Below, in pieces: positions 26,342 through 51,443 of a DNA stretch of 64,000 nt. Source of the stretch: a plasmid; the NCBI RefSeq assembly GCF_055900595.2, contig NZ_JBVWEU010000002.1; one strand, written 5' to 3'. The notes under the pieces are model-generated. The model made no database searches and was not told where the DNA came from. It saw nothing but the letters and a program-made list of their open reading frames with translations. The position numbers and the translations under genes were made by a program. Numbering within the stretch: the stretch's first letter is position 1; each line of letters opens with the position of its first letter.

Positions 26342-26416
26342 GAAACGCCGGGAGCGGGGAAAACTTGCTTTTTCCCGTTTCCGGGGTTGGACAACTGAGC
26401 AACGCGAAGGCGTCAG
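26342..26416. repeat. Copy 1 of a ~75-bp structured repeat (partner at 37222-37293)
   Basis: GAAACGCCGGGAG-[hairpin]-TTCCGGGGTTGGACAACTGAGCAACGCGAAGGCGTCAG. It overlaps the stop codon of the DUF2726 gene. Confidence 0.7.
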
Positions 26417-26915
26417 CTACGATGTTCCGGTGACTGCTGATCAGCCCCTGTTGTATTCAGCCATTCTCCGGTCATCTGCAGCAGTTTTCTGGCATCGTGG
26501 CTTCTGAGCAACGGAATACCAGCCTGCCTCAGAACCTCTTCCAGAAGAATATCCCGGCGTCTGCGTTCCGGTCGTAAATGGCTGGCATCATCCAGCTCTA
26601 CTGCTGCAACAATACTGAACGAACGCCGCTCAACGATAACCACATCAACATGCCACTGAGACACCATCCTGAATAACTGCCACCACTGGCGTGATCGTGG
26701 CCGGATATTCCCGTTCAGCTGGACGATATCCGCGACCCGTACCTGCGGACACAGATACCACCGCTGGACAGTATTCGCTCTGCATCACCGGTCCGTATAC
26801 CTGCCGTATGCAATTGCATCAGCAAAGGAGAATGCTGATTTACACTTCTGAGGATAATCCGGATAAGTAACGCTGCAATAATCAGAACAATGAGAATAAA
26901 AATAATCAACTTCAT
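26413..26915 (-). pseudogene. DUF2726-family (restriction-endonuclease-like fold) membrane-anchored protein, disrupted by a frameshift near 26760-26775
   Basis: The N-terminal TM ORF (MKLIIFILIVLIIAALLIRIIL...) ends at 26715. A second frame opens at about 26770 and reads ..WYLCPQVRVADIVQLNG..HVDVVIVERRSFSIVAAVELDDASH..RRRDILLEEVLRQAGIPLLR, the DUF2726 core. Confidence 0.6.
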
Positions 26916-26953
26916 TATTTATCTGCTCCTGGCAATTAATTATTGCTGAATTA

Positions 26954-27163
26954 TTACCTTACATATTTCCATATCTCTTTTGGTATCCTGTCATATAACT
27001 TTCCGGTGATTAATTCCGCTAACCGGTGGTCTGCTGCTGAATTAAATGACTCACGTTCACTGTTTGATAAACTGTCTCTGTTTTTATGAATAATTTTTTC
27101 CAGCGTATTGACTGATGAACATCGCCGTAACTGATACAGCCATTCCTGTTTTGTTTTTGCCAT
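26954..27163 (-). CDS. Hypothetical protein, 69 aa
   Basis: ORF only; no family is recognised. Confidence 0.45.
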   Translation of the reverse strand: MAKTKQEWLYQLRRCSSVNTLEKIIHKNRDSLSNSERESFNSAADHRLAELITGKLYDRIPKEIWKYVR

Positions 27164-27208
27164 TTTTATTCCCGCTGAGAACAGATGAATGATAGGATTG
27201 CCATCGCT

Positions 27209-27670
27209 TTATTTACGGTGCCTCCATATCCAGGGGGGAACCGGATCAGCATCTGACCAGAGCCCACGTTTTTGTTGTCTGGCTTCGTTCTGAAGGACAG
27301 GCAGCACGGGATCTGTGTTGTACTGCTCATATACCCAGGCAGCCCCGGCCCGGACCATAAACTGATTAATATTCATTCCGTCTGGTGCATAAACCTGCCC
27401 GAGAATACGACCATAACGATCTCGCTGAAAATATGTGACGGTAACCGTTTTTCCTGCGACCAGTGATTTCATCATGTCTGTTGACCACCGGCCATAATCC
27501 TGTTTCTTTTCCGGTGCATCAATATTTACCAGCCTGATCCGCACCGCCTTCCGTGAGTCCATGACCTCGATGGTATCACCGTCCAGTACACGAACAACCC
27601 GTCCATGAATATCTGCAGACAATACCGGCCATGAAAAGATAAATAATACCAGTGGAATATATTTCATCAT
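27209..27670 (-). CDS. Secreted staphylococcal-nuclease-like (SNase/thermonuclease) protein
   Basis: Signal peptide MMKYIPLVLFIFSWPVLSA, then VVRVLDGDTIEV, IRLVNIDAPE, RYGRILG and GLW motifs of SNase homologues. A GGAGA SD lies 5 nt before the ATG at 27670. Confidence 0.85.
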   Translation of the reverse strand: MMKYIPLVLFIFSWPVLSADIHGRVVRVLDGDTIEVMDSRKAVRIRLVNIDAPEKKQDYGRWSTDMMKSLVAGKTVTVTYFQRDRYGRILGQVYAPDGMNINQFMVRAGAAWVYEQYNTDPVLPVLQNEARQQKRGLWSDADPVPPWIWRHRK

Positions 27671-27915
27671 GTTATTCTCCATATCAGATAAATGGCACCT
27701 GTATTTCAGGCATCCTGAACATTGCAGCACACAATGAATAACACCTTATTTTGTGAAATAAATCACAAAATATAAAATCACGACTTAATACGGAAAAAAC
27801 TCTGTGCTACTCAGAACTGTCCGGTCATACTGCCCGACCGGATATTAAAAAAAGCAAATCTCATAAACTCCTTTCAGCCTTCTGACTTCTGGTGTAATGA
27901 AGGCTGCTTTTTTCA

Positions 27916-28128
27916 TTACACCCTTCCCCGGCAGCGCCGGTGGCAGTGTTCAGCCTTTTTCCGGGCAAACTGCTGCCAGTCTGTCCGGGGAGCTATGCAG
28001 GCAGCCCGTCGCCATGCTTCTGCCGCTTCCATCCAGCGTCCACTGACCTCCAGAATAACGGCCCGCCCGCCGGCACGCTGGTAACGCCAGACCTGACCGT
28101 TCCGTGAACTGTTTCTGAATCCATTCAT
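27916..28128 (-). CDS. Small Arg/Trp-rich protein, possibly ANR (AraC-negative-regulator)-like; otherwise hypothetical
   Basis: 70-aa ORF. The pattern W.EAAEAWRRAA......W..FARKKAEHC resembles ANR-family proteins as I recall them. Confidence 0.45.
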   Translation of the reverse strand: MNGFRNSSRNGQVWRYQRAGGRAVILEVSGRWMEAAEAWRRAACIAPRTDWQQFARKKAEHCHRRCRGRV

Positions 28129-28263
28129 TTTTCTGCTCCTCCCTTTTAGTCGTCAGTATTATTGTGGTAAATAATTCAGTGGACTGGCTTCCTTTCGGGT
28201 ACGGAAGTTATTTCCTTTTAAGCCTTATTGTTTCAGCCTCCTCACTCTTTCGGGGAGGCCTTT

Positions 28264-28824
28264 TTATTTCTCATCAAGCACGGCCTGAAGTTCTGCCTTT
28301 ATCCGGTTCTGGCGGCGGATTTTATCCAGACGCGCTGCCGCATACGCTTCCTCCTCCTGAGAAATATGCTCCGTCACATACCCTTCCGTGTCATACCGGC
28401 AGGCACCGGCTTTCATGGCACACAGATAGCTTTCTGAACGGGTGATGGCCTTCAGCGCCCTGCGCAGTTTTTTATGCGAGAGCGGGATATTCCGCTGCGC
28501 CACGTCTTCCAGTAACACGTCCCGGATACCGCAGGCCAGAAGCCGGGGCGTGTCACCGTCAAATAATCCCGGCCACCAGGGCTTCAGGGTATTCACGGCC
28601 TCATCCAGTGAGGGCAGGTTCAGATAAATGGACAGCGCCTGTCTAGCCTGCGCTTTTTTTGCCGCCAGCTCTGCTTCCCGGGCCGCTTTCTCGGCCAGTT
28701 TCTGCTTTTTCACCTTCCATTTTGGTGGCGTGGTGACATTGATGATGGTTTTCCGGCTGCGGACAGGCGTCTCTCCTTCTGTTTTCCGCTTCAGTGTCAG
28801 TACCGGTCGTTTCTGCTCTGTCAT
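28264..28824 (-). CDS. finO: FinO fertility-inhibition RNA chaperone (intact, 186 aa)
   Basis: [69 protein letters not shown]... is recognised as FinO. There is no IS3 insertion as in F. Confidence 0.92.
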
Positions 28825-28877
28825 GCTGTGTTCTGCCTCTGACGAATCATCCTTTACGGTCAAAGATACCACACCCT

Positions 28878-29624
28878 TTACAGTGCCAGAACGCCCAGCA
28901 CAGCCAGATGGCAGGCGTAGAAAGTCGGGAAAAAATCCCCGGGCCAGAAACGGGGTAATGATTTCCCTGCACAGGACACCAGGCCAACGGTCAGCACCGT
29001 CATCACAAGGCCGGCCACCGCCGCTGTATCACTGGTGGCAAGGTTAAGCGCAGGAATCACAGTCAGCAGGCATGCAACCAGCACCAGACGTTCCGTTCTG
29101 TCTTCCGCCCGGTACAGCCGGTGACTGACTGCCAGCATCAGCAGCCCGGCAATACCGTAACTGGTGCCGGACAAAGGCCCCCACAGTGCCATCAGGAGAA
29201 TGGCCGCTGCAGTACGCCACAGACTGCGCGTTTCACACCACGTCAGCACCTGTGCCGCAACTGCAAAGGCAAACAGGATATTCCCCTCATACCAGGGAAA
29301 GCCGGCCAGATAATACGCGAACTGGGCAATCACACCCCATCCCCACAGCCGGTTAATGGCCGACTGCCGGATATGCGCATGGCGGGACAGATTCAGCCCC
29401 CACACCAGGGCAAAAAGCGGAAAGGCTCCACGCCCGGCCAGAAACATCCACGTCTGGTCCAGATGCAGAATGCGGTTTGCATGGTCCAGTACCATCAGCA
29501 CCAGTGCCACCGTTTTGATGATATCCCGCTGTCCGGGGGACCAGACCAGCAATGACTGCAACCAGGTATCGGTCCGGGCAGCCAGTGAATCGTTACGTGT
29601 CGTGTTCGTGTTATCCGTTGTCAT
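28878..29624 (-). CDS. traX: TraX pilin N-acetylase
   Basis: 248-aa polytopic protein at the traI-finO position; the sequence is recognised. Confidence 0.9.
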
Positions 29625-29643
29625 CAGCGTTTATCTTCCTGTA

Positions 29644-32600
29644 TCAGTCTCCGCCCAGGGTTTTCTCTTTCTGCAGGTCACGAACCATATCCCGCTCCAT
29701 CTGCTGCAGACGCTCCTGCAGCAGGTTTTCCCGGGCAACCTCGCGGACCGCTTCCCGTTCCCGTTGTGGTTCACGCAGTACACTCTCCGGCAGCGCGGCT
29801 TCCCGTTCAGTTATGGCAGCCCGGTCACGCTCCTGCCCGGCAATTTCCCTGACAGCCAGCTCTGTTTTGCCATCCGGCAGGTCAGGTTTGTTCTCTGCCA
29901 TTTTACGGACAATTTCATCTGCGCGGCGTTCCGTTTCACGGCGGATAGCCTCTTCAGCCTGCCGCTGTGCCAGTACCTCTGCCGTGACCGGTTCGCCATT
30001 TCCGGCACCCGGCTGGACGCTGTTGTCCGGGATATCCCCCCACACGCGGCCACCGGTGATGGCACCGGGATTCCACGGACGGCCTTCACCGGCGATTCTT
30101 ACCACCACACCACTGTCAGGATTATCACGGGCAATCCGGACGCCATCCTGCATATTATCAGCCAGCAGGCTCTCTCCGTTACGGCTGCCCTGCAGGGCCA
30201 CGAACTGCGCATCCCCGCTGCCTTTCACACGGCCTTCACCACTGAATCCCCGCAGCCCGTTTCCGTCATCCGTGGTCAGTGGGTTCAGCCAGATACCTGC
30301 TGACTTGCCGTTACGGTCAAACGCCGGCAGTGCCACATACGGCTGCGGATATTTGCGCCCCGGTGCAATAAACCGTGCAGGACTGTCTCCCCCGGCCAGC
30401 CCCGCCTGACGAAGAACGGCACGGCCTGCCGCCACGTCCCGCAGCTCCCGCGCCGTACTGAACAGCCGCTCTGCATTCATGACCTCCCGGTCCGGTTTCG
30501 GCTCAAACACATCGTGGGCCGTACCTTTCTGTACGGCATTGTTGATGGCATCCGTCCAGCCCTGACGGTTATCGGTGTACACCTGCACATGCTGCTTCAT
30601 ACGCGACAGGGCCACGTAGGCTGACTCAAAGCCGGCCATCAGTTTCCGGTTACCTTCCGTGCCTTCAAGCGCGATGGCAAAGGTTTCACTTGCCCCCTGC
30701 GCACCGTGGGCGGTGATGGCATAAGCCAGGTCAATATGTTGCTCTGCCCGCTCCTGACCGGGGCGAATCACCCGGGTCTGCTGTCCGTCCGACAGCGTGA
30801 CACTGTCACCGGAAACCGCTGTCACCGTCCAGACGCTGTTGGCCACATAGCCGCGCTCCCGATCACTCTTCGTGAAGCGCATCCGGTCACCGGTTCCCAC
30901 CCGGATGGTGTCCGGGGTGTACAGTGTGACGCCTTCAGCCACCGCCTCCCGGGGCGAAATCAGCCGCGTGTTACCTTCCGCATCCTGCAGGGTTATCAGC
31001 CCGTCATCCTTACTGATACCGGCAATCCGGTGATACGCATTATCCACCAGGACAAGTGCGTCCCGATGTGTCTCCCAGGTGGAGAGACGACGCAGTTCTC
31101 CGTCACGTATATTCGCTGTGTTCAGGACAGGCACCATGACCTGCTCTTTGCCCAGCTCACCGGCCTTTTCCCGTGCATCATGAATCATGCTGTTCAGTAC
31201 GCGCCGGTCCTCATTCAGGTGTGTGACAATCAGCGTCTGCTCCCGTGCTTCCGGTGTCCTGCCGGTATAGTCGCGGACAATGGCTTCATACAGTGTCATG
31301 GGGATATCCGGGAAAGCCTCGCCTTTCAGCATCGCCTTCTGCTGCGCTTCTGCCAGTTTCGCTTCCTGGCTGTGACTGAACTCCGTCACGGAGTGCTCCG
31401 GTGCCCATGCGCCCTCCAGACGTGGCACCTGAGACGGTTTCACGCTCTCAAGCCCGGACAGTGCCCTTTCCACATCCCGGTTAATCAGGCTGTATACCGC
31501 CTCCCGCAGTTCCGGCGTCTGACGCACAATCTCCTTCATGATGACCACATCGGCAGCACTGCGCGTCTGCTGGAGACGGAAAGGCTGACCGGGCGCGATG
31601 GCCTGCAGCTGGTCCGTGTCACCGCTGGCCACAGCCCGACCGCCACCGGCCGCAATCAGGGCGTATGCCCGTGCCATGTCGGTATTGCCCACCATTGAGC
31701 TCTCATCGAGCAGGAACAGCGTGTTGCTGAAATCCGGCGTTTCTCCGCTGCGCTGCTGCATCTGCGTGTCATGCAGAAAGGACGCCAGTGTCTGTGCATC
31801 CACGCCGGCGCTGCGCATCTCCCCGACCGCACGGTGCGTGGGGCCCAGCCCAACGACACGGGGACGCTCACTCTCCGGCAGCATGTTCACGGCTGACATC
31901 ACCGCCCGGAACTGTGTGGTCTTACCCACGCCGGCATAGCCCTGCACCACCGTGAAACGGTCGGACGTTTCCAGTATCATGCGGGTGGCGGCACGCTGTC
32001 CTGATGTCAGTTTCTCCATGAGTTCGCCAGGTACTCTCTCCATCAGCGGCGTGACCGCCTCCTTACCTTCGAGAATATGGCGAAGAATGCTCTTTTCTGC
32101 CTCATACGACGCACGGGAAACCAGCAGGCCTGTGCCATAGCCTTTTGCCACATCCACATACAGTAAATCACCGCGTTTTATCTGCGCATTGATTTCCCCT
32201 CCCAGGTCGATAAAACTGGTTCCTTCTGCAGCAAACGACTTCGCCTCTGTCAGCAGGTCCACCATGCTGAAGGCCAGGTTTTTACTTTCCAGCACAGGAA
32301 GGGCCAGATGAATAGCCTGCTGTGCCGGCGTGTGAAGCCCGGCTTTCTGCAGACTGATAGCGGTTTCCAGCAATGTCTCACCGGCACGCGCCTTTATCTG
32401 CTCAGAAACCACCGTAAAGGAGGGATGACGGGCAAGTTTTTCCGCAGTACGGGTTTCATCCAGTGAAGAATACAGCCGGACATCACGACCGCTGCGGGCC
32501 AGACCGTTCAGGGTGGCGTTGTCCATTGCCATCTGTGTGACGGAGGCAAAAACCTTCGCACTGTCGCTGACGGAATGCCCGGGCGTTTCCACCCAGCCGT

Positions 32601-34914
32601 TCTCCAGCTTCAGTGCCGTGAACGGTGAATCAGCCACAGGCAGGGTGGCCGGTTCAGCCCGCCCCGGCACAACAACCGTCATCGCATCTTCACTGACGGA
32701 TGCCACCTGCAGGCGGTCACCGCCGGAGACGCGGAGTCCGGGAATTTTCCCTGTCACCCTCAGACGCTCGCCGTCTGCCACCGGCATTTTTTCCGGCCGG
32801 AACAGCGACCAGCTGCTGTCCAGAGAAGAAATACGCACCACCTGCGTTTCACCCTGCGCATCCCGCAGGGTCAGGCTGTGACTCTGCGCCGTCACCCGGT
32901 CTATCACATAGCGGTCATGACTGCGTGTCTCCGGGTTCCACTGCTCCATCACCATTCCCGGGCGGTACATATCCCGCAGATAACGGCTCCGGCTGTCCAG
33001 CCAGACCGGTGACAGTGCCGTCATGGTCACCTCCTGATGTCCGAGCACGCCCTGTGTTTTCAGCTCACTGCGAATGGCCTGTGTCAGTATGGCCTGTTCC
33101 CGTACCCCGCTGACCTGTGCCACGCTCTCTTCTCCGGCTTTCACGCTGGCCGCAAAATCTCCTGCCAGCCGGGCATAGCGGACATTACGGTCCGGTTCAC
33201 TGATGATGGTGGCCGGTCGCTGTTCTCCCCCCTGCCAGCGATATGTGTTCACCCCGGCATCCTTCATGGCCATCAGCGCACTGCCTGTACCGGTTCGCTG
33301 CCCGCTGTCGGTTATCAGGACCTGTACGTTATGACGTGCGGCACCGTCCAGCAGGGTTAACGTCTCTTTCAGGGAGAGTTTTTCGCCCTGGTCAACGATA
33401 ACAGTACTGCCCGGCGTGAAGGCCATGCCTTCCAGCAACTGACGACGTCCGGTTATCAGCTCACCGGACAGCCGTTCATCCTGCTTCAGGTTCATCTGCG
33501 AGCGACGGTCAGCAGCGATAATCTGCACTTCCCGCCCCTGCTCCCGGGCCATCATGACCAGTTCAGCCACCCGCTCACGCTGCCCGGCTGCACCGCCCTG
33601 CCCGGACACAATGGCCAGCGACGGACGGTCCTGTGCCAGAACACTGACCGCATCGCTGTAACCAGCCGTCCGGGGGACACTTTTCTCCGGATGTACGGTC
33701 ACCCGGTTCTGTTTCATGATGTCACGACTGAGTGCCCGGACGGACAGCTCATCGAGCACATGAATTCCTGATGCGAACAGCCCCTTCTCACGGTCGAGGG
33801 GGATAAGCTGCTCACGACTGATGGTCTCATCGATACCGGCGCGTGCCCGTTCAATCACACCATTTTCCGGCGGCAGTATACCGACCGTTCTGGCCAGCAC
33901 GTCCGTGTACGTAAACTGCACTTTTCGTTCACTTAATCCGGCAATCGCCTGTGTCACCGCCTGCTGCACATCCGGCCCCTCCTGTGAAACAGCCCCGGGC
34001 GCCTGCGTGCGGGTCTCCGCACGCTGATCCGCCGCGTCACGATATGCCCGGATGTCGAACCCGGTTTCCTTCAGCGTCTGCATCCATTCAGCCATTCTGA
34101 CTTCAGGATCGACGTGCTGTTTGGATTTTCGCGTATCCAGTGCCGCCACATCCCGGGATTTCAGCGAGGCATCTTCCCCGACGGCCTCCCGGATTGCCTG
34201 TGAGCGTCCGGAAAAGGCCTCCACCGGTACGCCCGGCATCTCCCACATACCGTGCTTACCCACCACTTCGGTTTCATAGCCCAGCGCCTCAACCTGCTCT
34301 TTCAGTTTTTCCCGGTAGAGCCTGCCAAAGGCAATCTGATTAGCGTACACATTCTCAATGAACCCCGTTTTCCCCACTTTGTCACTGCTCAGTGTCTTCC
34401 ATTCGCCGTTATGCTGCGTGACATTAGCCACCACCGCATGCGTGTGTAACTGTGGTTCCTGATCGCGACTGGTGTCGTGGTTAAACAGTGCCATCACCAG
34501 ATTACCGGTCAGCACCGTTTCTGACTGTCCGTCCGTCATCACCCGTGTGGAGGCCAGCGCCTCCACCTGACGAACAGCAAAGTCCACGGCCTGGTTATGT
34601 GCATCAATCAGGCGCTTATCGCCACCTAACATGGCCATCATGGAGACACTTTTGGGGGCGGAGAAGGTCAGGTCGTAGCCGGGACGATGCCTGTTACTGC
34701 CATCCTGCATGCGGCTTAGATCCGCTCCGTCCGGCAGCCTTCCCTCCAGAAGACGGGTAAAAACATCCTTATCGACACTGCCCTGCAGTCCCAGCTGTTC
34801 AGCCCCCCTGCCGGCCCAGCGTTCTCCCATGCTGCCCAGCACATAGTAATTATCCTTGTCGGTATAATAGTTACCGGCACTTCCGGCCGATCTGACCTGC
34901 GCGATACTCATCAT
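29644..34914 (-). CDS. traI: TraI relaxase / DNA helicase I (1756 aa)
   Basis: [24 protein letters not shown], the His triad HDTSRDQEPQLHTHAVVAN and the helicase Walker A GYAGVGKT are present. It is near-identical to F TraI as recalled. Confidence 0.97.
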   Translation of the reverse strand: MMSIAQVRSAGSAGNYYTDKDNYYVLGSMGERWAGRGAEQLGLQGSVDKDVFTRLLEGRLPDGADLSRMQDGSNRHRPGYDLTFSAPKSVSMMAMLGGDKRLIDAHNQAVDFAVRQVEALASTRVMTDGQSETVLTGNLVMALFNHDTSRDQEPQLHTHAVVANVTQHNGEWKTLSSDKVGKTGFIENVYANQIAFGRLYREKLKEQVEALGYETEVVGKHGMWEMPGVPVEAFSGRSQAIREAVGEDASLKSRDVAALDTRKSKQHVDPEVRMAEWMQTLKETGFDIRAYRDAADQRAETRTQAPGAVSQEGPDVQQAVTQAIAGLSERKVQFTYTDVLARTVGILPPENGVIERARAGIDETISREQLIPLDREKGLFASGIHVLDELSVRALSRDIMKQNRVTVHPEKSVPRTAGYSDAVSVLAQDRPSLAIVSGQGGAAGQRERVAELVMMAREQGREVQIIAADRRSQMNLKQDERLSGELITGRRQLLEGMAFTPGSTVIVDQGEKLSLKETLTLLDGAARHNVQVLITDSGQRTGTGSALMAMKDAGVNTYRWQGGEQRPATIISEPDRNVRYARLAGDFAASVKAGEESVAQVSGVREQAILTQAIRSELKTQGVLGHQEVTMTALSPVWLDSRSRYLRDMYRPGMVMEQWNPETRSHDRYVIDRVTAQSHSLTLRDAQGETQVVRISSLDSSWSLFRPEKMPVADGERLRVTGKIPGLRVSGGDRLQVASVSEDAMTVVVPGRAEPATLPVADSPFTALKLENGWVETPGHSVSDSAKVFASVTQMAMDNATLNGLARSGRDVRLYSSLDETRTAEKLARHPSFTVVSEQIKARAGETLLETAISLQKAGLHTPAQQAIHLALPVLESKNLAFSMVDLLTEAKSFAAEGTSFIDLGGEINAQIKRGDLLYVDVAKGYGTGLLVSRASYEAEKSILRHILEGKEAVTPLMERVPGELMEKLTSGQRAATRMILETSDRFTVVQGYAGVGKTTQFRAVMSAVNMLPESERPRVVGLGPTHRAVGEMRSAGVDAQTLASFLHDTQMQQRSGETPDFSNTLFLLDESSMVGNTDMARAYALIAAGGGRAVASGDTDQLQAIAPGQPFRLQQTRSAADVVIMKEIVRQTPELREAVYSLINRDVERALSGLESVKPSQVPRLEGAWAPEHSVTEFSHSQEAKLAEAQQKAMLKGEAFPDIPMTLYEAIVRDYTGRTPEAREQTLIVTHLNEDRRVLNSMIHDAREKAGELGKEQVMVPVLNTANIRDGELRRLSTWETHRDALVLVDNAYHRIAGISKDDGLITLQDAEGNTRLISPREAVAEGVTLYTPDTIRVGTGDRMRFTKSDRERGYVANSVWTVTAVSGDSVTLSDGQQTRVIRPGQERAEQHIDLAYAITAHGAQGASETFAIALEGTEGNRKLMAGFESAYVALSRMKQHVQVYTDNRQGWTDAINNAVQKGTAHDVFEPKPDREVMNAERLFSTARELRDVAAGRAVLRQAGLAGGDSPARFIAPGRKYPQPYVALPAFDRNGKSAGIWLNPLTTDDGNGLRGFSGEGRVKGSGDAQFVALQGSRNGESLLADNMQDGVRIARDNPDSGVVVRIAGEGRPWNPGAITGGRVWGDIPDNSVQPGAGNGEPVTAEVLAQRQAEEAIRRETERRADEIVRKMAENKPDLPDGKTELAVREIAGQERDRAAITEREAALPESVLREPQREREAVREVARENLLQERLQQMERDMVRDLQKEKTLGGD

Positions 34915-37076
34915 CAGAAATCATCTCCCGGCTCAACATCCTCCCCGCGCTCCCGGTGCACATTAATGTTCACCTCTTCACGACGCTGCATCTGCTGCTG
35001 GATGTCCGGATGATTTTCCTGTTGCCATGCCTCATAAGCGGCCATATCCACCACTTCACCGGATTCACTGATCCCGGGTGGCAGTTGCTGTTCCATCTCT
35101 TCTTCCGGTTTCATTTTCAGCTCCTGCTCGATCCCCCCTGCCGGAACATTCACACCTGAATCTGACTTCTTATCGTTGATGGCAGGAGACACCGGCTGTT
35201 GCGGCTGTTGCGGCTGTTCAGCCTGAGTCACGTCTTCTCCGGAAACAACTTCCGGCACATCCGGTTCGAAGAGGCTGGCCATCTGACGACCTTCTGCTTC
35301 CCTTGCGGCAAGTACGGCACTCAGACGGTTCTCCATTTCCGGGTTGATGTCACGCGGAATAAACTCCGGAGCGACCTTCGGACGTGCCTGATATTTCAGT
35401 GAGAGTTTTACTGCCGGATACGGTCCGGGCAGGGTGACATAACAGGTCAAATCCGGCAGAGACTGAATGTCAGAATAACTGACCAGCGTCTGGCGCTCCA
35501 TATCCTTACCGGTCGATACCCCGTCACGTACCGGATCAGCACCGTAGGAGTACTGCTCGCTGGCTTTCAGGTGCTCTTTCTCACCAATCTCACCGGCAGC
35601 GAACTCTGCAATCTTATGGCTGGGAGAACGGAAAAAGGCACGGGTGTTCATGACGTCAAACAGCGTGGCAGCCGCTTTCTCACCGTAGATATCTTCCAGC
35701 TGGGCATAGGACTGGATACCAAACACATAACAGCCACCGAACTTACGGGCTTCCGGCAGGATCTCCACCAGGTCCGGCAGTTTGTGTAACGTGGGTAGCT
35801 CATCACAGAAAAACCACACACGACGGTTACGGTTTTCTCCCATTGCCAGCAGACCACGAATGGCAATGGACAGCCACATGGAGATCACCGGCTTCAGGGA
35901 GGCATGGGTGTCGGCATTCGACGAGATAAACAGCCAGCCGTTTTTCTGATCTTCCCGGACACCCCGCATCCAGTCACGGATGGTAAAAGACTCACCGTTA
36001 TGCTCAATCCCCTGCAGGTAACGGATGGCTTTCACGTAGTTGGTCAGCACAGCACGGATGGAAATCGCCGTTTTCTCAATTTTCTCTTCCACCAGGTTGG
36101 CCGCCGGTGAATTACGCAGGAAGGTACGCAGTTTTTCGATTTTGATGGAAAGCAGTGTGTCCACCAGTTTGCTGTAGCTGCGGTTGGGGTCATTACGCAT
36201 CAGGTACGCCGCTTCCGCAAAAATGGTACGTCCTGAACCCTGCCAGAACGGGTCCTCTTTTGTGCCCATCGGGATCAGGGTATTTGCCGTATTATCAAAA
36301 TCCGGCTGTGTCAGACACTCCTTCCATAAATCCCAGGCGGCACAGCGGGCATCCAGCGGATTCAGGATCTTATCGATGGAGGGATCATAGTAACTTTTAA
36401 CAAATTCCCCTGAACGGTCATAAATCACCACCATATCACCGCGCTGACGGGCGTAGTTGGCCAGACGACGGATAACTTCCGACTTACCGGCCCCGACCGT
36501 GCCGTGCAGACAGAAGTTCTGGATTTCAGAATCCCGGATAATCGGCAGGTCGCCAATCCGGATATCGGAGTCCTTGCCGTCTTTTTTCAGCATCCGGGCA
36601 ACGTCTTTCGGATTGTCTGTCAGCTGACGACCACCTGTGACTTCATTTTCGCTCTGTTGTTTACCCTGACGCCCCAGAATCCAGGAGACAACAAAGAAGG
36701 TAATCAGGCAAATAACCAGTGCCACAACTGTGGCCAGAACGAATGCGGACCATAGCTGCTCTCCGCACCAGATCATATATTTATCATGCAGTACCTGAGC
36801 AGCATTCATCCGGAAGGTTTTGCCGTAATACTGGATCTCATAGACCGGCTGGGACTTGATTAAATCCCGCATGCCTTCCAGCGTGGTACACCACCAGTAA
36901 ATACAGCCGTTCACAAACGTCTGCCAGCTTATTTTTACCCATAAAACCAGACCAACGAGTATCCAGAAAAAAATAAACAGGCAGTAAAGCATGATATTGG
37001 CGATCTGGCTGAACATGCGGATACGCATGGACGCAATCTGACCGCCCTGGGTCATATCCTTTGCGTTAAAACTCAT
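34914..37076 (-). CDS. traD: TraD type IV coupling protein
   Basis: 720 aa, two N-terminal TM segments, Walker A GTVGAGKS, and a C-terminal QPQQPQQP repeat. Confidence 0.96.
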
Positions 37077-44028: not shown

Positions 44029-44376
44029 TTAGCCTGTCATAAGCCCCCTTATAAAAAACCACATCACTCCGGACCATACTGATGACAACATAATACAGAT
44101 AAATATTCTTCTGAACCCGTCGAAGCTCGTAACGTTCGGTAATGAGCCAATAACCATTGGAACAACCATTGCTGCGCCCTGATTCATAATTGCACCACAC
44201 AGAAACCAGAGACTGGCAGTCAGCACATATAAACACGCGATATTAATAACAAGGAAAACCAGTGAGCTCAGGAGAAACATTTTCCTGTCATTACGCTCAG
44301 AAAAGAAATAACCGGCAATAATGACAAATATTAACAGAACAACACCTGTAAACAGTTTCAAATAATCTTCACTCAT
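44029..44376 (-). CDS. trbA: TrbA inner-membrane protein
   Basis: 115-aa hydrophobic protein in the F trbA slot. Confidence 0.85.
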   Translation of the reverse strand: MSEDYLKLFTGVVLLIFVIIAGYFFSERNDRKMFLLSSLVFLVINIACLYVLTASLWFLCGAIMNQGAAMVVPMVIGSLPNVTSFDGFRRIFICIMLSSVWSGVMWFFIRGLMTG

Positions 44377-44391
44377 AAATCAAATCCGCGA

Positions 44392-45135
44392 TTAAAAATT
44401 GGGTTTAAAATCTTCAGAAACGTTCAGGAATTGTTTTGCCAGGTCGTCCTGCGAAATAAAGCCGTATGATAACGGGCGAACACTGCCCTGTTTCGGGTCA
44501 ACCAGCATCATGGCCGGGAAATATTTCACGCCGAGGCGCTGCGCCTGCCCCTGGTCAGTCCGGGAATCCGGCAACAGCGGATTAATCACACCATCCACGG
44601 AAACGGGAATAACACTCAGACCATAGGTATCCCTGAAGCCATTAATGACCTGCGCCAGCTGCCCGTCGATGGGGTCCTGCCCCCGGTAAAAGAACATGAT
44701 GCCGTAGTGTTCAGCCAGTTTCGCAATGGCCTGTCGCTGCTGCACCTGGTCTGCCGCCAGCTGGTTCCGGACCGTGCCGTTGTAATGGCTGTACTGCAGG
44801 TTATAGTCCAGTTCGGGATGCGCCAGCATGGCTTTTTTGGCGCTCATGGTGAAAAGCCCGGCCTGCTGAGTCCAGTAATTCTGCAGCCGGAAATATTTCA
44901 CAAAATTATCCACGCCGGGATACAGAATGGCTTCGTACAGCGCCCGCTTTGTTGCCGTCTGCAGTGCGGCCAGTTTCTGCATAATGTCCGGCTCCTGACG
45001 GGGGGCTGCAGGTACTGGTTTATTTTCTTTTTCCTTCGGATTTATTTTCTCGTTATACCACTGCCAGCCTGCATCTTTTCCTGACGCCGGAAAAATAAAG
45101 CAGCAGAGTAACAGTGGCAGTAATGCTTTATTCAT
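44392..45135 (-). CDS. traF: TraF thioredoxin-fold pilus assembly protein
   Basis: MNKALLPLLLCCFIFPASGKDAGWQWYNEK... 247 aa, recognised as F TraF. Confidence 0.95.
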   Translation of the reverse strand: MNKALLPLLLCCFIFPASGKDAGWQWYNEKINPKEKENKPVPAAPRQEPDIMQKLAALQTATKRALYEAILYPGVDNFVKYFRLQNYWTQQAGLFTMSAKKAMLAHPELDYNLQYSHYNGTVRNQLAADQVQQRQAIAKLAEHYGIMFFYRGQDPIDGQLAQVINGFRDTYGLSVIPVSVDGVINPLLPDSRTDQGQAQRLGVKYFPAMMLVDPKQGSVRPLSYGFISQDDLAKQFLNVSEDFKPNF

Positions 45136-45355
45136 CTTCATTCCTTTCATCACTTTTTCTTTCATCAGGTTTCTGCAGGTCAGTCAGGGCAGAAAAACAA
45201 AAATACAGAATAAACAGGAGCACACCGGAGTAAAAAATAACGAAAGCAGCAGCAAGTATCTCACCTGCAGTGGTTTCTTTTACCGTATCCCACGACCAGA
45301 TAATTACCGGGGAAATGACAATCGCTGTAATCAAAAGCCGGATGCGTATTCTCAT
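45128..45355 (-). CDS. trbE: TrbE small membrane protein; its 5' end coincides with the edge of the IS block and may be truncated or altered
   Basis: 75-aa ORF in the trbE slot, overlapping the traF start. The A of its ATG is the first base of an IS21-type terminal-repeat-like unit (45355-45392). An in-frame stop lies 3 codons upstream. Confidence 0.75.
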   Translation of the reverse strand: MRIRIRLLITAIVISPVIIWSWDTVKETTAGEILAAAFVIFYSGVLLFILYFCFSALTDLQKPDERKSDERNEDE

Positions 45356-45442
45356 GAAAGGAGATCACTCAATAACTTCCATCGAGATCGGGTAATAACG
45401 GCGTTTTTCAAGGTAGTTGTCGCCTTTTGTAATAAAATTACG

Positions 45443-46348
45443 TTATGCCGCTTCTTTTTCTGGATTCAGATAAACTGCCTGAATGAGTTCCCAGTCACGC
45501 AACTGTTTGCTCCAGCGCTCAGGATGACGTTTGCGAGCTTCGCGATAAACTTTTTTTCTGGCTTCCAGTATTTGTGCGTCAATTCCGCGATGGCGTTCAT
45601 CCGGAGTAACATACTTAATACCGCTGTGCTTGTGTTCCAGGTTGTACCATCGCGTGAACTTGCTTAACCAACTTCTGGCTTCATCTATGGTTCGAAAACC
45701 ATTCTCTGGCCACCATGGACAATACTTAATCGTCCGGAAGAGCGATTCGGAATAAGGGTTATCATTGCTGACCCGGGGACGGGAATAAGAACTTAATACG
45801 CCAAGCGCGTACATTTTTGCCAGTAACGTACAACTGCGCATTGGTCCTCCGTTATCAGAATGAAGCACGAGATTGCGGGATGAACATTTTTCATTCCATA
45901 CAGCACGTTGAAGCAGTTCTGCCGCATACTGCCCAGATTCTTTCGTAAATACTTCGGCAGCAATAATTTTTCGGCTATAAATATCGACGATCATATAGAG
46001 ATAAAAATGCTGCCCCTTAACCCACGATGGGATATAACTAATATCCCAGCTCCACACCTGGTTGGGGGCTACAGCTTTGAGTACTTCAGGCCGCTTATAT
46101 TGGTGTTCACGGGTTCTCCTTGTCAGTTGGTTAGCTGATTTTAATACGCGATAAAAAGTTGATTCTGACGCGATATAAACCCCTCTGTCGGCAAGAGTCG
46201 GAACAATAATATTCGGAGACAATGATGCAAACTCCGGAGAATTGCATACATCAAGTATTCTTAATCTTTCTGTTTCTGACAGTTTATTCCCCGGGGTACG
46301 CCTTGATGCACCTGGTCTCTGATCTGTATGAACCACACCACCCTGCAT
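45443..46348 (-). CDS. IS3-family OrfB (DDE integrase-like catalytic domain)
   Basis: W.WDISYI, LYMIVDIYSRKI, LHSDNGGPM and SYSRPRVSNDNPYSESLFRT motifs of the rve/DDE domain. It is probably expressed as an OrfAB fusion. Confidence 0.85.
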   Translation of the reverse strand: MQGGVVHTDQRPGASRRTPGNKLSETERLRILDVCNSPEFASLSPNIIVPTLADRGVYIASESTFYRVLKSANQLTRRTREHQYKRPEVLKAVAPNQVWSWDISYIPSWVKGQHFYLYMIVDIYSRKIIAAEVFTKESGQYAAELLQRAVWNEKCSSRNLVLHSDNGGPMRSCTLLAKMYALGVLSSYSRPRVSNDNPYSESLFRTIKYCPWWPENGFRTIDEARSWLSKFTRWYNLEHKHSGIKYVTPDERHRGIDAQILEARKKVYREARKRHPERWSKQLRDWELIQAVYLNPEKEAA

Positions 46349-46467
46349 CCAACGTTGAAGTGTTCTGACTGAAATACCAATACACTGGCAGGCTTGTGTT
46401 TTTCTCGCTCCTGAACTGACAGCCTCGCTGACCAGATTAATAATCTTCTGCCGCTCTGGAAGAGGAG

Positions 46468-46980
46468 TCAGCCTTCCTCGCTGTTGTCCCAGAGGGCATT
46501 GAACTTTTCCCTTAACATCAAAAGAGCAGCTGCTTCCGCCAGAGCTTTATCTTTACGGAGAAGTTCTTTTTCCAGTTCCCGTAACTGGGTCTTTGCTTCG
46601 CGTAATTCTTTATCAGCACGGCGACTTTCTGCCATTTTCATTTCATGAGCCTGAATGGATATAGCTCTCCATTCTTTAACTTGCTCAACAAATAACCCCA
46701 TTCTCCGACAATAATCAGCCAGTTCCATTTCAGATAATGTTGCAGTTTCAATTACAACAGAAAATCGTCGCTCCGGTGTCCATTCATTTCCATCGACAGA
46801 AGATATTTTTTCATTTTCAGGTAACAGGCCTTGTTGCACCAGTTCAAGTCTCCATCTTGCTATTACTGAAGGGCTCAGGTCCAGTTTACGAGCAATATGC
46901 CGTATGGACCAACTATAAGGTGGTAATAACCAGGTAACACCTTGTTCTTTTATATCAATTGGTACTGCATGTGCGGGCAT
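46468..46980 (-). CDS. IS3-family OrfA (HTH plus leucine-zipper region)
   Basis: The ATG at 46980 has an AGGAGAG SD. The C-terminal ...LRELEKELLRKDKALAEAAALLMLREKF is typical of IS3-family OrfA. Confidence 0.8.
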   Translation of the reverse strand: MPAHAVPIDIKEQGVTWLLPPYSWSIRHIARKLDLSPSVIARWRLELVQQGLLPENEKISSVDGNEWTPERRFSVVIETATLSEMELADYCRRMGLFVEQVKEWRAISIQAHEMKMAESRRADKELREAKTQLRELEKELLRKDKALAEAAALLMLREKFNALWDNSEEG

Positions 46981-47172
46981 AGTCTCTCTCCTGTGTAAAA
47001 ATCTAGGCGACAACTATGCTGACACAGGGGGATAACATTTGAACAGATCGCTGAATAACATCGATGGAGATCACTTTTGACTCATTTTGTTATTCAGTGA
47101 TCTCCATCAATGTTATTGGAACTTCACAGGTGTGTTGATCTGTATCTTTTGCCATTCCGGTAAAGGATACCT

Positions 47173-48714
47173 ATGCCAACAGTTCCAATTTCTATGAGAA
47201 AACTTAAAGAAATTCTTAGGCTTAAATACGGTGTTGGACTCAGCCATCGACAAATTGGTCGTAGTCTTGCAATCTCCCCTTCCGTTGTATCCAGATATGC
47301 TAATCGGGCGGCTCAACTTGGCATAAAGCAGTGGCCCTTACCTACAGGATGGGATGATACAAAACTAAAACATGCGTTCCTTCAGACCCAGGTTAAGATG
47401 AAGAAGCACTCTCTGCCTGACTGGGCTACAGTACACCGGGAACTGCGTAATAAATGCGTGACGCTGCAGCTACTCTGGGAAGAATACTGTGAGCGTAATC
47501 CAGGCGGTTTTTACAGCTATAACCATTACTGCCGGATGTACCGTGAATGGCTCAAAACCACTTCACCATCAATGCGTCAGGTACATAAAGCTGGCGAAAA
47601 ACTTTTCGTTGATTACTGTGGACCTACCGTTGGCGTTACCGACCCTGAGACCGGAGAAATAAGAACTGCTCAGGTCATCGTAGCTGTTCTCGGGGCATCA
47701 AGTTACACATGGGCAGAGGCCACCTGGTCTCAGCAGCTTGAAGACTGGGTGATGAGTCATGTTCGCTGCTTCCAGTGGTTGGGTGGCGTTCCTGAACTTG
47801 TTGTTCCGGACAATCTGAAAAGCGCCACATCCAGGGCATGTAAGTATGATCCTGACGTTAACCCTACCTACCAGCAGATGCTTGAGCATTATAATGTCGC
47901 AGTTTTGCCTGCGCGGCCACGTAAACCGAAAGATAAAGCCAAAGCTGAAGTTGGCGTTCAGGTTGTTGAACGCTGGATCATGGCCCGAATCAGGCATGAG
48001 ATCTTCTACAGCCTTGCATCGCTTAATCAGCGCATTCGGGAGTTGCTGGAAAGACTGAATAACAAAATAATGCAGAAGTTGGGTTATTCACGTGCAGAAC
48101 TCTTCATCCAGCTTGATAAACCCGCACTGAAGCCTCTTCCTGAAGCCAGTTACAGTTACACCCTGGTGAAGAAAGTCAGAGTTCATGCCGATTACCACGT
48201 GGAAATCGACAAACATTACTACTCGGTTCCATGTTCGCTGTTAGGCCAGCAACTGGAAGCATGGATCTCCGGAGAACTGGTAAGACTCTTCAATCAGGGG
48301 CAGGAGGTTGCTGTGCACCCGCGCAAGCGTACTTATGGCTACAGTACCCGCAACGAGCACATGCCTGAAGCTCATCGACAGCATGCCACCTGGACGCCAG
48401 AGCGTCTTCTGGAATGGGCGGGGCACATAGGCAGTGAAACTCATAGTTATGTGCTTCATATACTGAACTCTCGTCCACATCCGGAACAAAGCTATCGCTT
48501 CTGCCTTGGACTCCTGAACCTTCATAAAAAATACAGTAAAGCCAGACTTAATGCAGCATGTGCAAGAGCTCTGAAAACAAAGGTATGGCGTCTGTCAGGT
48601 ATTAAATCGATCCTGGAAAAAGGTCTGGATAAACAACCTGTTCAGGATCCAAAACCAGATCTGTTATCCACGATGGAACACGAAAACGTACGCGGCAGTG
48701 AGTATTACCACTGA
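47173..48714 (+). CDS. istA: IS21-family IstA transposase (513 aa)
   Basis: N-terminal HTH (LSHRQIGRSLAISPSVVSRY) and a DDE region (..DYCGPTV.., ..PDNLKSA..). Confidence 0.88.
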   Translation: MPTVPISMRKLKEILRLKYGVGLSHRQIGRSLAISPSVVSRYANRAAQLGIKQWPLPTGWDDTKLKHAFLQTQVKMKKHSLPDWATVHRELRNKCVTLQLLWEEYCERNPGGFYSYNHYCRMYREWLKTTSPSMRQVHKAGEKLFVDYCGPTVGVTDPETGEIRTAQVIVAVLGASSYTWAEATWSQQLEDWVMSHVRCFQWLGGVPELVVPDNLKSATSRACKYDPDVNPTYQQMLEHYNVAVLPARPRKPKDKAKAEVGVQVVERWIMARIRHEIFYSLASLNQRIRELLERLNNKIMQKLGYSRAELFIQLDKPALKPLPEASYSYTLVKKVRVHADYHVEIDKHYYSVPCSLLGQQLEAWISGELVRLFNQGQEVAVHPRKRTYGYSTRNEHMPEAHRQHATWTPERLLEWAGHIGSETHSYVLHILNSRPHPEQSYRFCLGLLNLHKKYSKARLNAACARALKTKVWRLSGIKSILEKGLDKQPVQDPKPDLLSTMEHENVRGSEYYH

Positions 48715-48725
48715 TACGGGATCCA

Positions 48726-49475
48726 ATGATGAATCATCTTTACGAACAACTGACCGCACTTAAACTCACCGGCTTCCGTGATGCGCTTAAAAAGCAACTT
48801 GCTCAGCCGGGCACATACCAGGAGCTGGGCTTCGAAGAACGCCTGTCATTACTGACAGCAGAAGAACTAACCTGCCGTGAAAACAGGAAGGCAGAGCGTC
48901 TGATCAAACATGCACGGTTCAGACTTAATGCTGAGTTATCAAAGCTGGATTATCGTAACAATAGAGGGCTGGACAGGGCCCTCATCCGTTCACTCAGTCA
49001 GGGAAACTGGTTAACCCTGAAACAAAATATTTTACTGACCGGGGCCACCGGCAGCGGTAAAACGTTCCTGGCATGTGCACTTGGTCATAATGCCTGCCGA
49101 CAGGGATACAAGGTCTACTATTATCGCCTTAAAGCGCTGATGGAACAGTGCTATCAGGGGCATGCTGATGGAAGATACAGCAAACTTTTGACCAGGCTGA
49201 ATAATAGCGATCTGCTGCTTCTGGATGACTGGGGGCTGGAACCTCTCTCATCAGAACAGCGTAGCGACCTGCTGGAAATAGTGGATCTGATGTACCAACG
49301 AGGCTCAATCATCGTAGTGAGCCAGTTGCCGGTGGAAAACTGGTACAAAATGATCGGAGACTCCACACATGCGGATGCCATCCTAGATCGACTGGTTCAT
49401 GGCAGTATCAAGATCGAACTTAAAGGAGAATCAATGCGGAAAATACAATCTCCGTTGACCGAAGGAGATCAGTGA
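48726..49475 (+). CDS. istB: IS21-family IstB ATPase helper (249 aa)
   Basis: Walker A GATGSGKT and Walker B LLLLDDWG. Confidence 0.88.
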   Translation: MMNHLYEQLTALKLTGFRDALKKQLAQPGTYQELGFEERLSLLTAEELTCRENRKAERLIKHARFRLNAELSKLDYRNNRGLDRALIRSLSQGNWLTLKQNILLTGATGSGKTFLACALGHNACRQGYKVYYYRLKALMEQCYQGHADGRYSKLLTRLNNSDLLLLDDWGLEPLSSEQRSDLLEIVDLMYQRGSIIVVSQLPVENWYKMIGDSTHADAILDRLVHGSIKIELKGESMRKIQSPLTEGDQ

Positions 49476-49634
49476 AGGTAATTTAAAAACGGTTCTGTGA
49501 AAGTGACACGAACCGATCTCCATCGATGTTACTCACCGATCTCCTTCACGGTAATACGCACCGGATAAGAAAATCAATAAAACGGTTCGACGTGAATATG
49601 ACTTTCATCATTTTCCCCGGTTATTTTCCCTACC

Positions 49635-51443
49635 TTACTGTCCTGCCTGTTTCAGCTGGTCAGCAATCTGCTCTTTCACTTTCTGCGTCAGAACACCACT
49701 GTCCGGGATTTTCTGGTTATTCATCAGGTCTTCGTAGAAGTTAGTGAAATCCAGTCTGTCGAACTGAATTTTCTGCAGCTCATCAACCGTAATCCCCCGA
49801 CAGTCAGGATGCTTCGCACTGCCAAAACTGATACGCAGCTGTCCGTTGCGCCCCTGCTGCTGGACTATCTGCGCCAGCTTCGAATCAAACTGACAGTAAC
49901 TGCGTTTTTTCTCCAGGCAGACACCCAGCACTTTCTTCGAACAGAACTCTCCGACACTGACGGTCAGTTTGTTTGATTTTGCTTTAGCCAGGGCTTTTTC
50001 ATCACTGCTGCATTTGGCCAGCCCGATGTCCTGTCCCCAGCCGCTGTCCTTACAGCAGTTGCTGTATCCGGCTGCAGCCTTCTTACAAAATTTCGCCTGA
50101 CCGGTGAAAGCACGGACATCCACCCCGTTCAGCGCCGCAACATCCTTACCTGCTGCGGCCAGTGCCGCCAGCTGAGAAACGGCTTCGGCAAAATCATTAC
50201 TCTTCCCGCTCTGAGCCTTATCGCATTCGCCATCGAGACAGAAGACGTCTCCCCCACAGACCATCACTTTCCCGGATGTTTTTGACTCACAGGAGTACGT
50301 GGCATATTCATGCAGACAGGCACCTTCTTCGGAGTAAAAGGCACACTGGTGTGACACCAGGGTACAGGCTGGATTGTCGGTGTAGGTCTGACAGGTTCCC
50401 TTGTCTGCTGACTGTGTGACATACGTGTCCCGGTATGCCCAGCAGCTCTGGTACATGCTGTATGACTGACCGTCTTTCACCAGCGTCCTGTTCCCGCCAG
50501 CCTCCGTACATTCTGTTTTTGTCAGTTTCCCCAGCTCCTTGCTGAACGGGCAGCTTTCAGACCAGACAACATACGGGGTGTACGAGGCTTTTTTTACCCT
50601 GACAACCAGACGCAGCTTCATTGCCGTATGACGTTTGAATTTTGTATTCCCGACCCGGACGGGGTGAGATGACGTAAAAGCAACACCGGCAGTCAGTGTT
50701 TTCTGTACTGGTGTAAATGAGGCATCTGCTGAGTATTTGGCATTCCAGCTCAGTGGGGTTCCCAGTACTGTAATTGTCATAGGTACACTCTTCTGCAGGT
50801 AAGTACGACTCCAGCTGTAATGCGCATCGACAATTTCACCGGTAACGGGAGAGGTAATGGAGACAACATACTGACCATTCACTTCACGTGCAGGTAGCTG
50901 ACTCATTTCATACTCCAGCGTCCGGGTTTCCCATGTGGTACTCCCCTGCAGCTCCATACGGGCAGTTCGTGTGCAGTACTGCTCCACCTGTAAATCCCGC
51001 TCACAGGTGTAATTCGTGTATTCACTCCGGCTAATCTCCTGCGCACTGCACTGCTGCCCGGTGTTTCCCACAATGCTGTCAGCCCGGTTCACCACATCCC
51101 TGCCGGTCTGGATAAACGGTGCATCCGGTGAAAGAATGTCTTTCGGCTTGTTCATGAATGACTCTGTGATGGTTTTTCCGGTTTCACCGGTCGCCCATTC
51201 CGTGGTGCCGTCATTTTTCAGGCCGCCATCCCCGCCGGCAGTCACGCCACCGTAGTATTTTGTCTCGTCCGGATTCGCGTTATAGCCGGGGATACTCTCC
51301 TGTGGCTTAAAGCCCTGAATACTGCTGCTTCCCTGTCCTTTGATCTGGTGAGCAAAATCAGAGCCGGCCCGGTAATCACTGTTGCTGTCAGCCTGTGCCA
51401 TGCCGGCAACCAGAGCCAGTATCAGAGGTAAAATACGTTTCAT
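49635..51443 (-). CDS. traN: TraN outer-membrane mating-pair stabilisation protein
   Basis: 602 aa, Cys-rich, signal peptide, recognised as F-type TraN. Confidence 0.96.
   Translation of the reverse strand: MKRILPLILALVAGMAQADSNSDYRAGSDFAHQIKGQGSSSIQGFKPQESIPGYNANPDETKYYGGVTAGGDGGLKNDGTTEWATGETGKTITESFMNKPKDILSPDAPFIQTGRDVVNRADSIVGNTGQQCSAQEISRSEYTNYTCERDLQVEQYCTRTARMELQGSTTWETRTLEYEMSQLPAREVNGQYVVSITSPVTGEIVDAHYSWSRTYLQKSVPMTITVLGTPLSWNAKYSADASFTPVQKTLTAGVAFTSSHPVRVGNTKFKRHTAMKLRLVVRVKKASYTPYVVWSESCPFSKELGKLTKTECTEAGGNRTLVKDGQSYSMYQSCWAYRDTYVTQSADKGTCQTYTDNPACTLVSHQCAFYSEEGACLHEYATYSCESKTSGKVMVCGGDVFCLDGECDKAQSGKSNDFAEAVSQLAALAAAGKDVAALNGVDVRAFTGQAKFCKKAAAGYSNCCKDSGWGQDIGLAKCSSDEKALAKAKSNKLTVSVGEFCSKKVLGVCLEKKRSYCQFDSKLAQIVQQQGRNGQLRISFGSAKHPDCRGITVDELQKIQFDRLDFTNFYEDLMNNQKIPDSGVLTQKVKEQIADQLKQAGQ

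Follow-up and report, generated by a model that had tools for sequence, protein, structure and literature searches.

The F-type tra operon on a plasmid contig (NZ_JBVWEU010000002.1, RefSeq assembly GCF_055900595.2) was studied in a stretch of 64,000 nucleotides, hereafter the window, in which foreign DNA separates traN from traF. This block is very probably a nested pair of simple insertions in trbE, the inner of them at a preferred site, from which polarity on the distal transfer genes would be expected. The insertion sequence (IS) ISEc12, of the IS21 family, lies in trbE after codon 16, between duplicates of the 5 bp target CCGGA and with its istAB genes opposed in direction to the tra operon. 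The left end of this ISEc12 in turn holds an IS3-family element, immediately inward of the second repeat bound by the transposase IstA and between duplicates of ATAA. Rather than being a random second hit, the inner insertion would reflect a lineage of IS3-family elements that favours GATC-N5-RTAA sites in ISEc12-type ends. ISEc12 may have arrived first and then been hit, or a pre-formed composite may have moved as a unit. A first-pass annotation, made from the sequence alone, had correctly recognised two elements between traN and traF, one of the IS3 family on the minus strand and one of the IS21 family on the plus strand, and its estimate of a block of about 4.2 kb agrees with the 4218 bp found to have been added. 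It erred in locating the block in the spacer between traN and trbE, as trbE itself is split.

The identity and extent of the outer element emerge from comparison with other copies. When positions 44300-50700 were compared with PLSDB by megablast, the IS21-type element was recognisable as ISEc12, intact copies of which aligned in two pieces, approximately 45337-45399 and 47032-49565. This was the first sign that the IS3-family element is situated inside ISEc12 and not beside it. Three intact copies (comparison loci L001, L002 and L009) align to 45343-45399 and 47032-49560 with 99.96-100% identity, the two pieces overlapping by 5 bp. ISEc12 hence extends from 45343, where it begins with TGCGTATT, to 49560, where it ends with AATACGCA; without its passenger it is 2581 bp in length (56 + 2529 - 4). 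Its identity to annotated ISEc12 copies is 99.96-100%, as judged over 2529 bp against copies so named by the Prokaryotic Genome Annotation Pipeline (PGAP).

The outer target site can be read from an IS-free plasmid, NZ_MW800638.1 (L003), which aligns to window positions 45000-45343 and 49561-50000 with 100% identity and a 6 bp overlap, CCGGAT, the last T of which is also the first base of ISEc12. The uninterrupted junction in relatives is AAAAGCCGGATAAGAAAATC. As the flanks rejoin to give exactly the sequence of the IS-free plasmid, no base has been lost, and nothing was deleted at the insertion. The first-pass annotation had instead proposed two neighbouring elements, 15 bp apart at the junction of traN and trbE, that lacked target duplications owing to subsequent adjacent deletion or recombination. 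Flanking repeats are indeed not visible if the ends are set, as they were there, at 45355, 49548, 45406, 47024 and 47040. However, the true ends of ISEc12 lie 12 bp outside the edges drawn at 45355 and 49548 (the latter also the end of the IS21-family element, given as 47040-49548), and it was this displacement that caused the duplications to be missed: the flanks joined in that way are 29 bp longer than the uninterrupted junction, consisting of 24 bp of ISEc12 tips and the 5 bp duplication. With the ends corrected both pairs of duplications are perfect, the intact ISEc12 includes 45343-45399 and so spans both sides of the IS3-family element, and the alignment to the IS-free plasmid reveals a junction unaltered except for simple insertions. 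The side-by-side arrangement is therefore refuted, and we attach practically no weight to it. An error of 12 bp in the position of an end is thus sufficient to make clean insertions look rearranged and to shift an insertion site from a gene to a spacer.

ISEc12 in the window possesses the features that typify the IS21 family, namely istA and istB, TG...CA ends, a 5 bp duplication and the internal repeats L1, L2, L3, R1 and R2, with GAGATC-N5-RTAAC repeats present at both ends; a multiple-repeat architecture is described for the ends of IS21 itself (PMC10122671). The two genes and the repeats L1, L2, R1 and R2 are all intact. The NCBIfam cut-offs against which the transposition proteins were assessed are 160 bits for the IS21 transposase (NF033546), 200 bits for IstB (NF038214) and 160 bits for the IS3 transposase (NF033516). 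Duplications of 5 bp also accompany ISEc12 in L009, on plasmid pR14-S7K7-1 (GTTAT), and in tssM of E. coli ST131 clade C (ACTGC; PMC10711316). A single nucleotide polymorphism private to the window is found at 45351, position 9 of the tip, such that the left repeat is TGCGTATTCTCATG here and TGCGTATTTTCATG in other copies; this is the sole difference between the composite in the window and that at locus L157.

Full-length copies of the inner element (window 45400-47031), 99-100% identical to it, recur on chromosomes and plasmids at many loci that are unrelated to one another. Here it is positioned 56 bp from the left tip of ISEc12, directly after the second terminal repeat. A 1632 bp element with a 5 bp duplication, ATAAC, would fit the junctions equally well; the 1633 bp element with the 4 bp duplication ATAA is preferred because the ends of the family are ...CGCCG and the right-end flanks of 121 relatives almost all start with G. 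Membership of the IS3 family is evident from the domains PF00665 and PF13683 in OrfB and PF01527 in OrfA, and from a score of 173 bits against NF033516. Identical copies are labelled by PGAP as 'IS3 family transposase, programmed frameshift', and a -1 frameshift is predicted here from the reading frames. The 26 nt ends are imperfect inverted repeats with a common 11 nt core, TAGTTGTCGCC, and they begin with C and finish with G, where TG and CA are usual. The closest named element is ISPsy31 of Pseudomonas syringae, which has 57% amino acid identity in OrfB and shares the TAGTTGTCGCC terminal core, a right end of ...CCTTGAAAAACGCCG and the layout of OrfA with two helix-turn-helix (HTH) motifs. 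Judged by the PGAP labels and by its distance from ISPsy31, the element falls outside the level of identity to an ISfinder entry (at least approximately 95%) that would place it in a named IS.

The exact trbE::ISEc12::IS3 structure matched no record in PLSDB or among all complete RefSeq E. coli genomes, and IS elements are often misassembled, such that repeated IS copies might have been joined erroneously to the tra region. However, a chimeric join would create no target duplications, where two nested perfect pairs of typical length are present, and the inner site is one that the IS3-family element uses repeatedly elsewhere. An assembly artefact is consequently regarded as highly improbable.

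The age of the insertion can be gauged from the IS-free plasmid, p1517k_F64:A-:B27, with which window positions 23433-64000 are collinear. Identity is 99.78% over 23433-35218 and 99.98-99.99% in the DNA flanking the block; there are three mismatches in 24.6 kb of tra DNA, and the composite is the only structural difference seen in the tra region. With the exception of TrbE, the Tra and Trb proteins from TraY to TraX, along with FinO, are complete and have 98.8-100% identity to their counterparts in this sibling, which agrees with the first-pass description of the remaining tra open reading frames (ORFs) as intact. Both IS elements are 100% identical to copies elsewhere. The near-identical IS-free sibling, the identical IS copies and the full-length tra proteins together indicate, at the level of sequence, that the insertion is recent, one of two explanations previously offered for the intact ORFs; continued selection, the other, is then not needed to account for them. 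What was originally reported is an ordinary, recent nested IS insertion. Of greater interest, and a separate lead for transposon biology, is that an IS3-family element seems to choose as its target the repeats to which the transposase of an IS21-family element binds. The coordinates of the features are collected in Table 1.

Table 1. Coordinates of the nested insertion, its component genes and repeats, and the adjoining tra genes in the window
Feature	Position	Strand	Details
Composite ISEc12::IS3 insertion	45343..49560	+	4218 bp; tips TGCGTATTCTCATG... and ...GGTAATACGCA
Left ISEc12 target duplication, CCGGA	45338..45342	.	From comparison with IS-free plasmid
Right ISEc12 target duplication, CCGGA	49561..49565	.	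Present once in IS-free plasmid L003
ISEc12 left terminal 56 bp	45343..45398	+	IstA-binding repeats L1 GGAGATCACTCAATAAC and L2 CGAGATCGGGTAATAA, then C
istA, ISEc12 transposase	47173..48714	+	513 aa, intact; NF033546, 310 bits; 100% nucleotide identity to L001
istB, helper AAA+ ATPase	48726..49475	+	Intact; NF038214, 270 bits
IS3-family element	45399..47031	-	1633 bp; minus-strand ends CCCCCTGTGTCAGCATAGTTGTCGCC... and ...GGCGACAACTACCTTGAAAAACGCCG; 99-100% copies elsewhere
IS3-family target duplication ATAA, left copy	45395..45398	.	Intact ISEc12 has GGGTAATAACATTTG once
IS3-family target duplication ATAA, right copy	47032..47035	.	From comparison with intact ISEc12
orfA	46468..46980	-	170 aa; N-terminal HTH (~aa 10-55) and HTH_Tnp_1 (aa 67-140)
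orfB frame, DDE/rve domain	45443..46546	-	-1 frame relative to orfA; 79 nt overlap includes AAGGGAAAAG
trbE 5' fragment, codons 1-16, MKVIFTSNRFIDFLIR	49561..49608	-	Enters ISEc12 right end and stops after CVLP
trbE 3' part, residues 15-85	45128..45355	-	75 aa ORF, MRIR + IRLLITA...; ATG inside ISEc12 left repeat
traN	49635..51443	-	Intact, 602 aa; 100% identical over full length to TraN of NZ_MW800638.1
traF	44395..45135	-	Intact, 247/247 aa identical; first essential gene downstream of block

The contexts of the IS3-family element in E. coli genomes, plasmids and assemblies, approximately 25 of which are distinct, suggest that the inner site is no accident. In about 20 of the 25 the element abuts ISEc12-type end sequence on one side at least, and in these the junction always coincides with the inner edge of an IstA-binding repeat (GATC-N5-RTAA). 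The repeats used as targets are L1 (GGAGATCACTCAATAA), L2 (CGAGATCGGGTAATAA), L3 (CAGATCGCTGAATAA) and R1 (GGAGATCGGTGAGTAA). Simple insertions into an otherwise intact ISEc12 (n = 6) have 4 bp duplications, either TTAT/ATAA or TTAC/GTAA, and occur in both orientations: at L2, one orientation is represented by the window and L157 and the other by L156, while at R1 one is represented by L005 and L154 and the other by L150. A single genome carries five copies of the element (L154-L158), every one of them in an ISEc12 end. Of 60 E. coli genome records sampled at even steps, 41 had the motif adjoining the right end of the element, a proportion that is indicative only, as the records are non-independent. 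Even a variant with 75% nucleotide identity (L160) occupies a shell of ISEc12 ends, with a 5 bp duplication of CCTGG. The few exceptions are an intact copy in the nan region (L151), a copy within a groEL-like gene, beside GGAGATCGCCCAGGTC (L015), and the truncated remnants L163 and L164. Taken together, these contexts make it highly likely that this IS3-family lineage prefers the IstA-binding repeats of ISEc12-type ends. When metagenomes were scanned with the element's left end, only six loci were returned, which added little.

At several loci (L004, L006, L008, L013, L016, L147, L149 and L160), only 32-80 bp of ISEc12 ends remain around the IS3-family element as a shell, and at L158 the interior of ISEc12 is inverted. 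As the element inserts in both orientations at both ends of ISEc12, recombination between direct copies would generate shells, and between inverted copies the arrangement at L158. An exotic deletion mechanism was also considered for the shells and found unnecessary, double hits and recombination being sufficient. Direct repeats of 5-7 bp (CCGAT, CCTGG, CCTTAA and CAATATA) border the shells L008, L147, L006 and L160, and an L1|R1 shell was seen at two separate loci. IstAB acting in trans may thus mobilise such shells; alternatively, they may have arisen repeatedly in place.

These observations bear on the order of events in trbE. It is quite possible, if not quite probable, that a pre-formed 4.2 kb ISEc12::IS3 composite transposed into the gene as one unit, through IstA and IstB acting on the ISEc12 tips. 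A composite of identical layout, with the IS3-family element at L2 in the same orientation, is present at a different locus, L157 (GCA_963577325.1), with one mismatch over 4138 bp, and L146 has the same inner junction; the intact istA, istB and terminal repeats of the window composite are in keeping with such a transposition. However, the site specificity of the IS3-family element predicts that L2 would be hit independently, as exemplified by the opposite orientation at L156, and makes two successive insertions just as possible. Neither can sequence identity discriminate between one event and two, given that copies of both elements are near-identical everywhere, and plain ISEc12 without the IS3-family element is found 54 bp away in other plasmids (L009). 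Furthermore, with the inner element in place L3 and the sequence preceding istA are cut off from L1 and L2, and this may reduce the activity of ISEc12.

The preference does not extend to the family as a whole. A family-wide affinity for IS21 ends was rejected on the basis of 121 right-end flanks from other gammaproteobacteria, which were varied; in relatives from Pseudomonas, Vibrio, Shewanella and other genera the flanks are without the IS21-end motif. The literature covered on ISPsy31, ISEc12, IS1353/IS1326 and IS21 repeats, which did not include the original description of IS1353, contains no report of IS3-family elements targeting IS21 ends. Nevertheless, the insertion of IS1353 in IS1326 (In2 of Tn21, on R100; L166) is a parallel case, in which an IS3-family element likewise occupies the region of terminal repeats at the left end of an IS21-family element. 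IS1353 is situated between the IS1326 repeats L1 and L2, 25 bp from the tip and upstream of istA, in the opposite orientation; on R100 the IS1353 transposase (approximately 1.54 kb) is at 7426-8970 and IS1326 istA at 9093-10616. IS1353 was ruled out as a relative of the element in the window (tblastn E > 1), and the IS1326 repeats, of the TTGACCCAC type, differ from those of ISEc12. By analogy, this parallel supports some general affinity of IS3-family elements for IS21 ends. Other IS3-family elements are known to choose their sites: IS911 inserts beside sequences like its own ends, and IS1397 and ISKpn1 insert into the palindromes of repetitive extragenic palindromic (REP) sequences and bacterial interspersed mosaic elements (BIME). 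The element described here resembles these in its orientation-aware choice of short repeated targets. Unlike them, it is directed at a repeat that binds the transposase of an unrelated IS family and that has no likeness to the element's own ends.

One candidate for the basis of this choice is the N-terminal HTH of OrfA. Residues 25-52 of OrfA align with residues 24-51 of ISEc12 IstA with 12 of 28 positions identical and a local score of 55, a value reached by none of 2000 shuffles (23 ± 4.5). For the diverged E. coli variant (L160), SHRQIARKLKISASVVSKW aligns with SHRQIGRSLAISPSVVSRY, and a wider alignment scores 69, where 5000 shuffles gave at most 49. By contrast with the 55-69 of the E. coli forms, the N-terminal HTH motifs of OrfA from two non-targeting relatives, ISPsy31 and a Hydrogenophaga copy, score 24-26 against IstA, which is background. 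The coding stretches compared were those for amino acids 1-55 of OrfA (46816-46980) and 1-52 of IstA (47173-47330); with a nucleotide identity of approximately 54%, recent recombination was ruled out as the origin of the IstA-like HTH. Within the IS21 transpososome, HTH-1 and HTH-2 of IstA read the conserved halves of each terminal repeat (PMC10122671). OrfA may, through its HTH-1-like helix, recognise the IstA-binding repeats directly. We tentatively suggest such mimicry as the targeting mechanism on the strength of the alignment scores. Alternatively, as the IS21 transpososome contains a sharp DNA bend close to where R1 meets R2 (PMC10122671), bending induced by IstA at repeat junctions may create a hot spot for the insertion of IS3-family elements. 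The wider proposition, which is similarly tentative, is that the unnamed E. coli IS3 lineage is a 'parasite of a parasite' that homes to ISEc12-type repeats by mimicry of HTH-1 and guts ISEc12 elements into shells. If true, this would be a simple instance in which one mobile element selects its target by molecular mimicry of another, and would explain the many ISEc12 'end stubs' in E. coli genomes.

The consequences for the tra operon begin with trbE, which in relatives is a gene of 85 codons (258 nt) whose ATG lies 26 nt past the traN stop codon and which overlaps the start of traF. The window has this ATG at 49608 (minus strand), and the composite divides the gene into 16 and 69 codons, such that no intact 85-codon trbE is found between traN and traF. 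The ATG at 45355 that had been annotated as the start of trbE belongs to the left inverted repeat of ISEc12, and the ORF that begins there (45128-45355) is a fusion that still overlaps the traF start codon. TrbE is thus predicted to be truncated. Insertion mutants of F trbE reportedly transfer normally, in work by Maneewannakul et al. (1992), a study listed in PMC7690428, and the loss of TrbE is probably harmless in itself. If trbE is dispensable in this way, any phenotype would stem from polarity rather than from the absence of TrbE.

Approximately 60% of the block, corresponding to the istAB genes of ISEc12, is opposed to the direction of tra, close to the half estimated at first, while the IS3-family element runs with it. 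A transcript from the traY promoter, on the minus strand, would enter the right end of ISEc12 and proceed through approximately 2.5 kb of untranslated sequence antisense to istB and istA, then run in the sense direction through the IS3-family element, and, past a last 56 bp of ISEc12, reach what remains of trbE and then traF. Because the long tra transcript crosses this untranslated antisense RNA, which is a classic substrate for Rho-dependent polarity, strong polarity on traF to traX would probably result, with lower expression of traF, traH, traG, traD and traI and with poor or no transfer. The situation resembles the classical polar insertions of IS1 and IS2 in gal, in which an IS likewise interrupts a long polycistronic unit and lower distal expression is expected; IS3 in finO of F is another classical example. 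A scan of the block region found 12 weak terminator-like hairpins, seven of them on the minus strand, against 4.0 ± 2.0 expected.

A number of points weigh against this interpretation. The length of the inner duplication, 4 or 5 bp, is ambiguous by one base, and the functional consequences are throughout what we infer. Furthermore, the block may not be polar, if distal tra genes were expressed by read-through from the IS3 transposase or from internal tra promoters. The transposase gene is co-directional with tra and lacks a strong terminator downstream. It stops 44 nt short of the right end of the element, beyond which only 56 bp of ISEc12 precede the remainder of trbE, so that read-through could give low expression of traF and later genes. 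Translational coupling might also survive, as the in-frame ATG in the ISEc12 repeat opens a TrbE-like ORF overlapping the start of traF, and several F-like plasmid lineages retain ISEc12 in the traN-traH part of the operon, indicating that insertions there are tolerated for some time. The traS, traT, traD and traI genes of F have been reported to have separate promoters. We know of no promoter belonging to traF, traH or traG, however, and the transposase promoters of IS3-family elements are typically weak. A consensus scan of the minus strand between 44900 and 49800 did not identify a sigma-70-like site. Distal expression adequate for transfer is for these reasons considered unlikely. It was also considered whether the right end of the IS3-family element supplies TTGAAA as the -35 of a hybrid promoter directed outwards; this was rejected, as no matching -10 is present in the following 56 bp of ISEc12. 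If the nested insertion is polar as we expect, an IncF plasmid of the type found in avian pathogenic and extraintestinal pathogenic E. coli (APEC/ExPEC) would be stranded in its host, which advises caution in calling plasmids 'conjugative' from gene content alone.

ISEc12 is also found elsewhere in F-like tra regions. It occupies the spacer between traN and trbE, in the same orientation as in the window, in pR14-S7K7-1 (L009, NZ_CP107148) and at least three further records. It lies between trbA and traF, again in the same orientation relative to tra, in p14408_1 (L001, NZ_LT599826), and a remnant is present between traQ and trbA in a CH4797 plasmid (L004). The sites in pR14-S7K7-1 and p14408_1 are within 1.2 kb of that in the window, but neither is inside trbE; the window differs from both in the position of its insertion, after codon 16, and in the nested IS3-family element. 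The presence of ISEc12 or its remnants at several traN-traH sites (L001, L004 and L009; hits H2-H8 and H109-H117) marks the region as either a hot spot or one in which insertions are tolerated. Any orientation bias of ISEc12 in tra is subject to ascertainment bias, as the search joined only pieces on the same strand.

The host is an F-like E. coli plasmid of the F64:A-:B27 type. Window positions 1-23500 include fdrA, genes for a cytosine permease and carbamate kinase, and IS100, which is also of the IS21 family and is without a copy of the IS3-family element; this part of the window matches E. coli IncF plasmids from poultry, pigs and humans with 99.8% identity. TraD (34917-37076) has a gap of nine residues relative to the protein of the sibling plasmid, with which it is 98.8% identical; the gap probably reflects the variation commonly seen in the C-terminal repeat.

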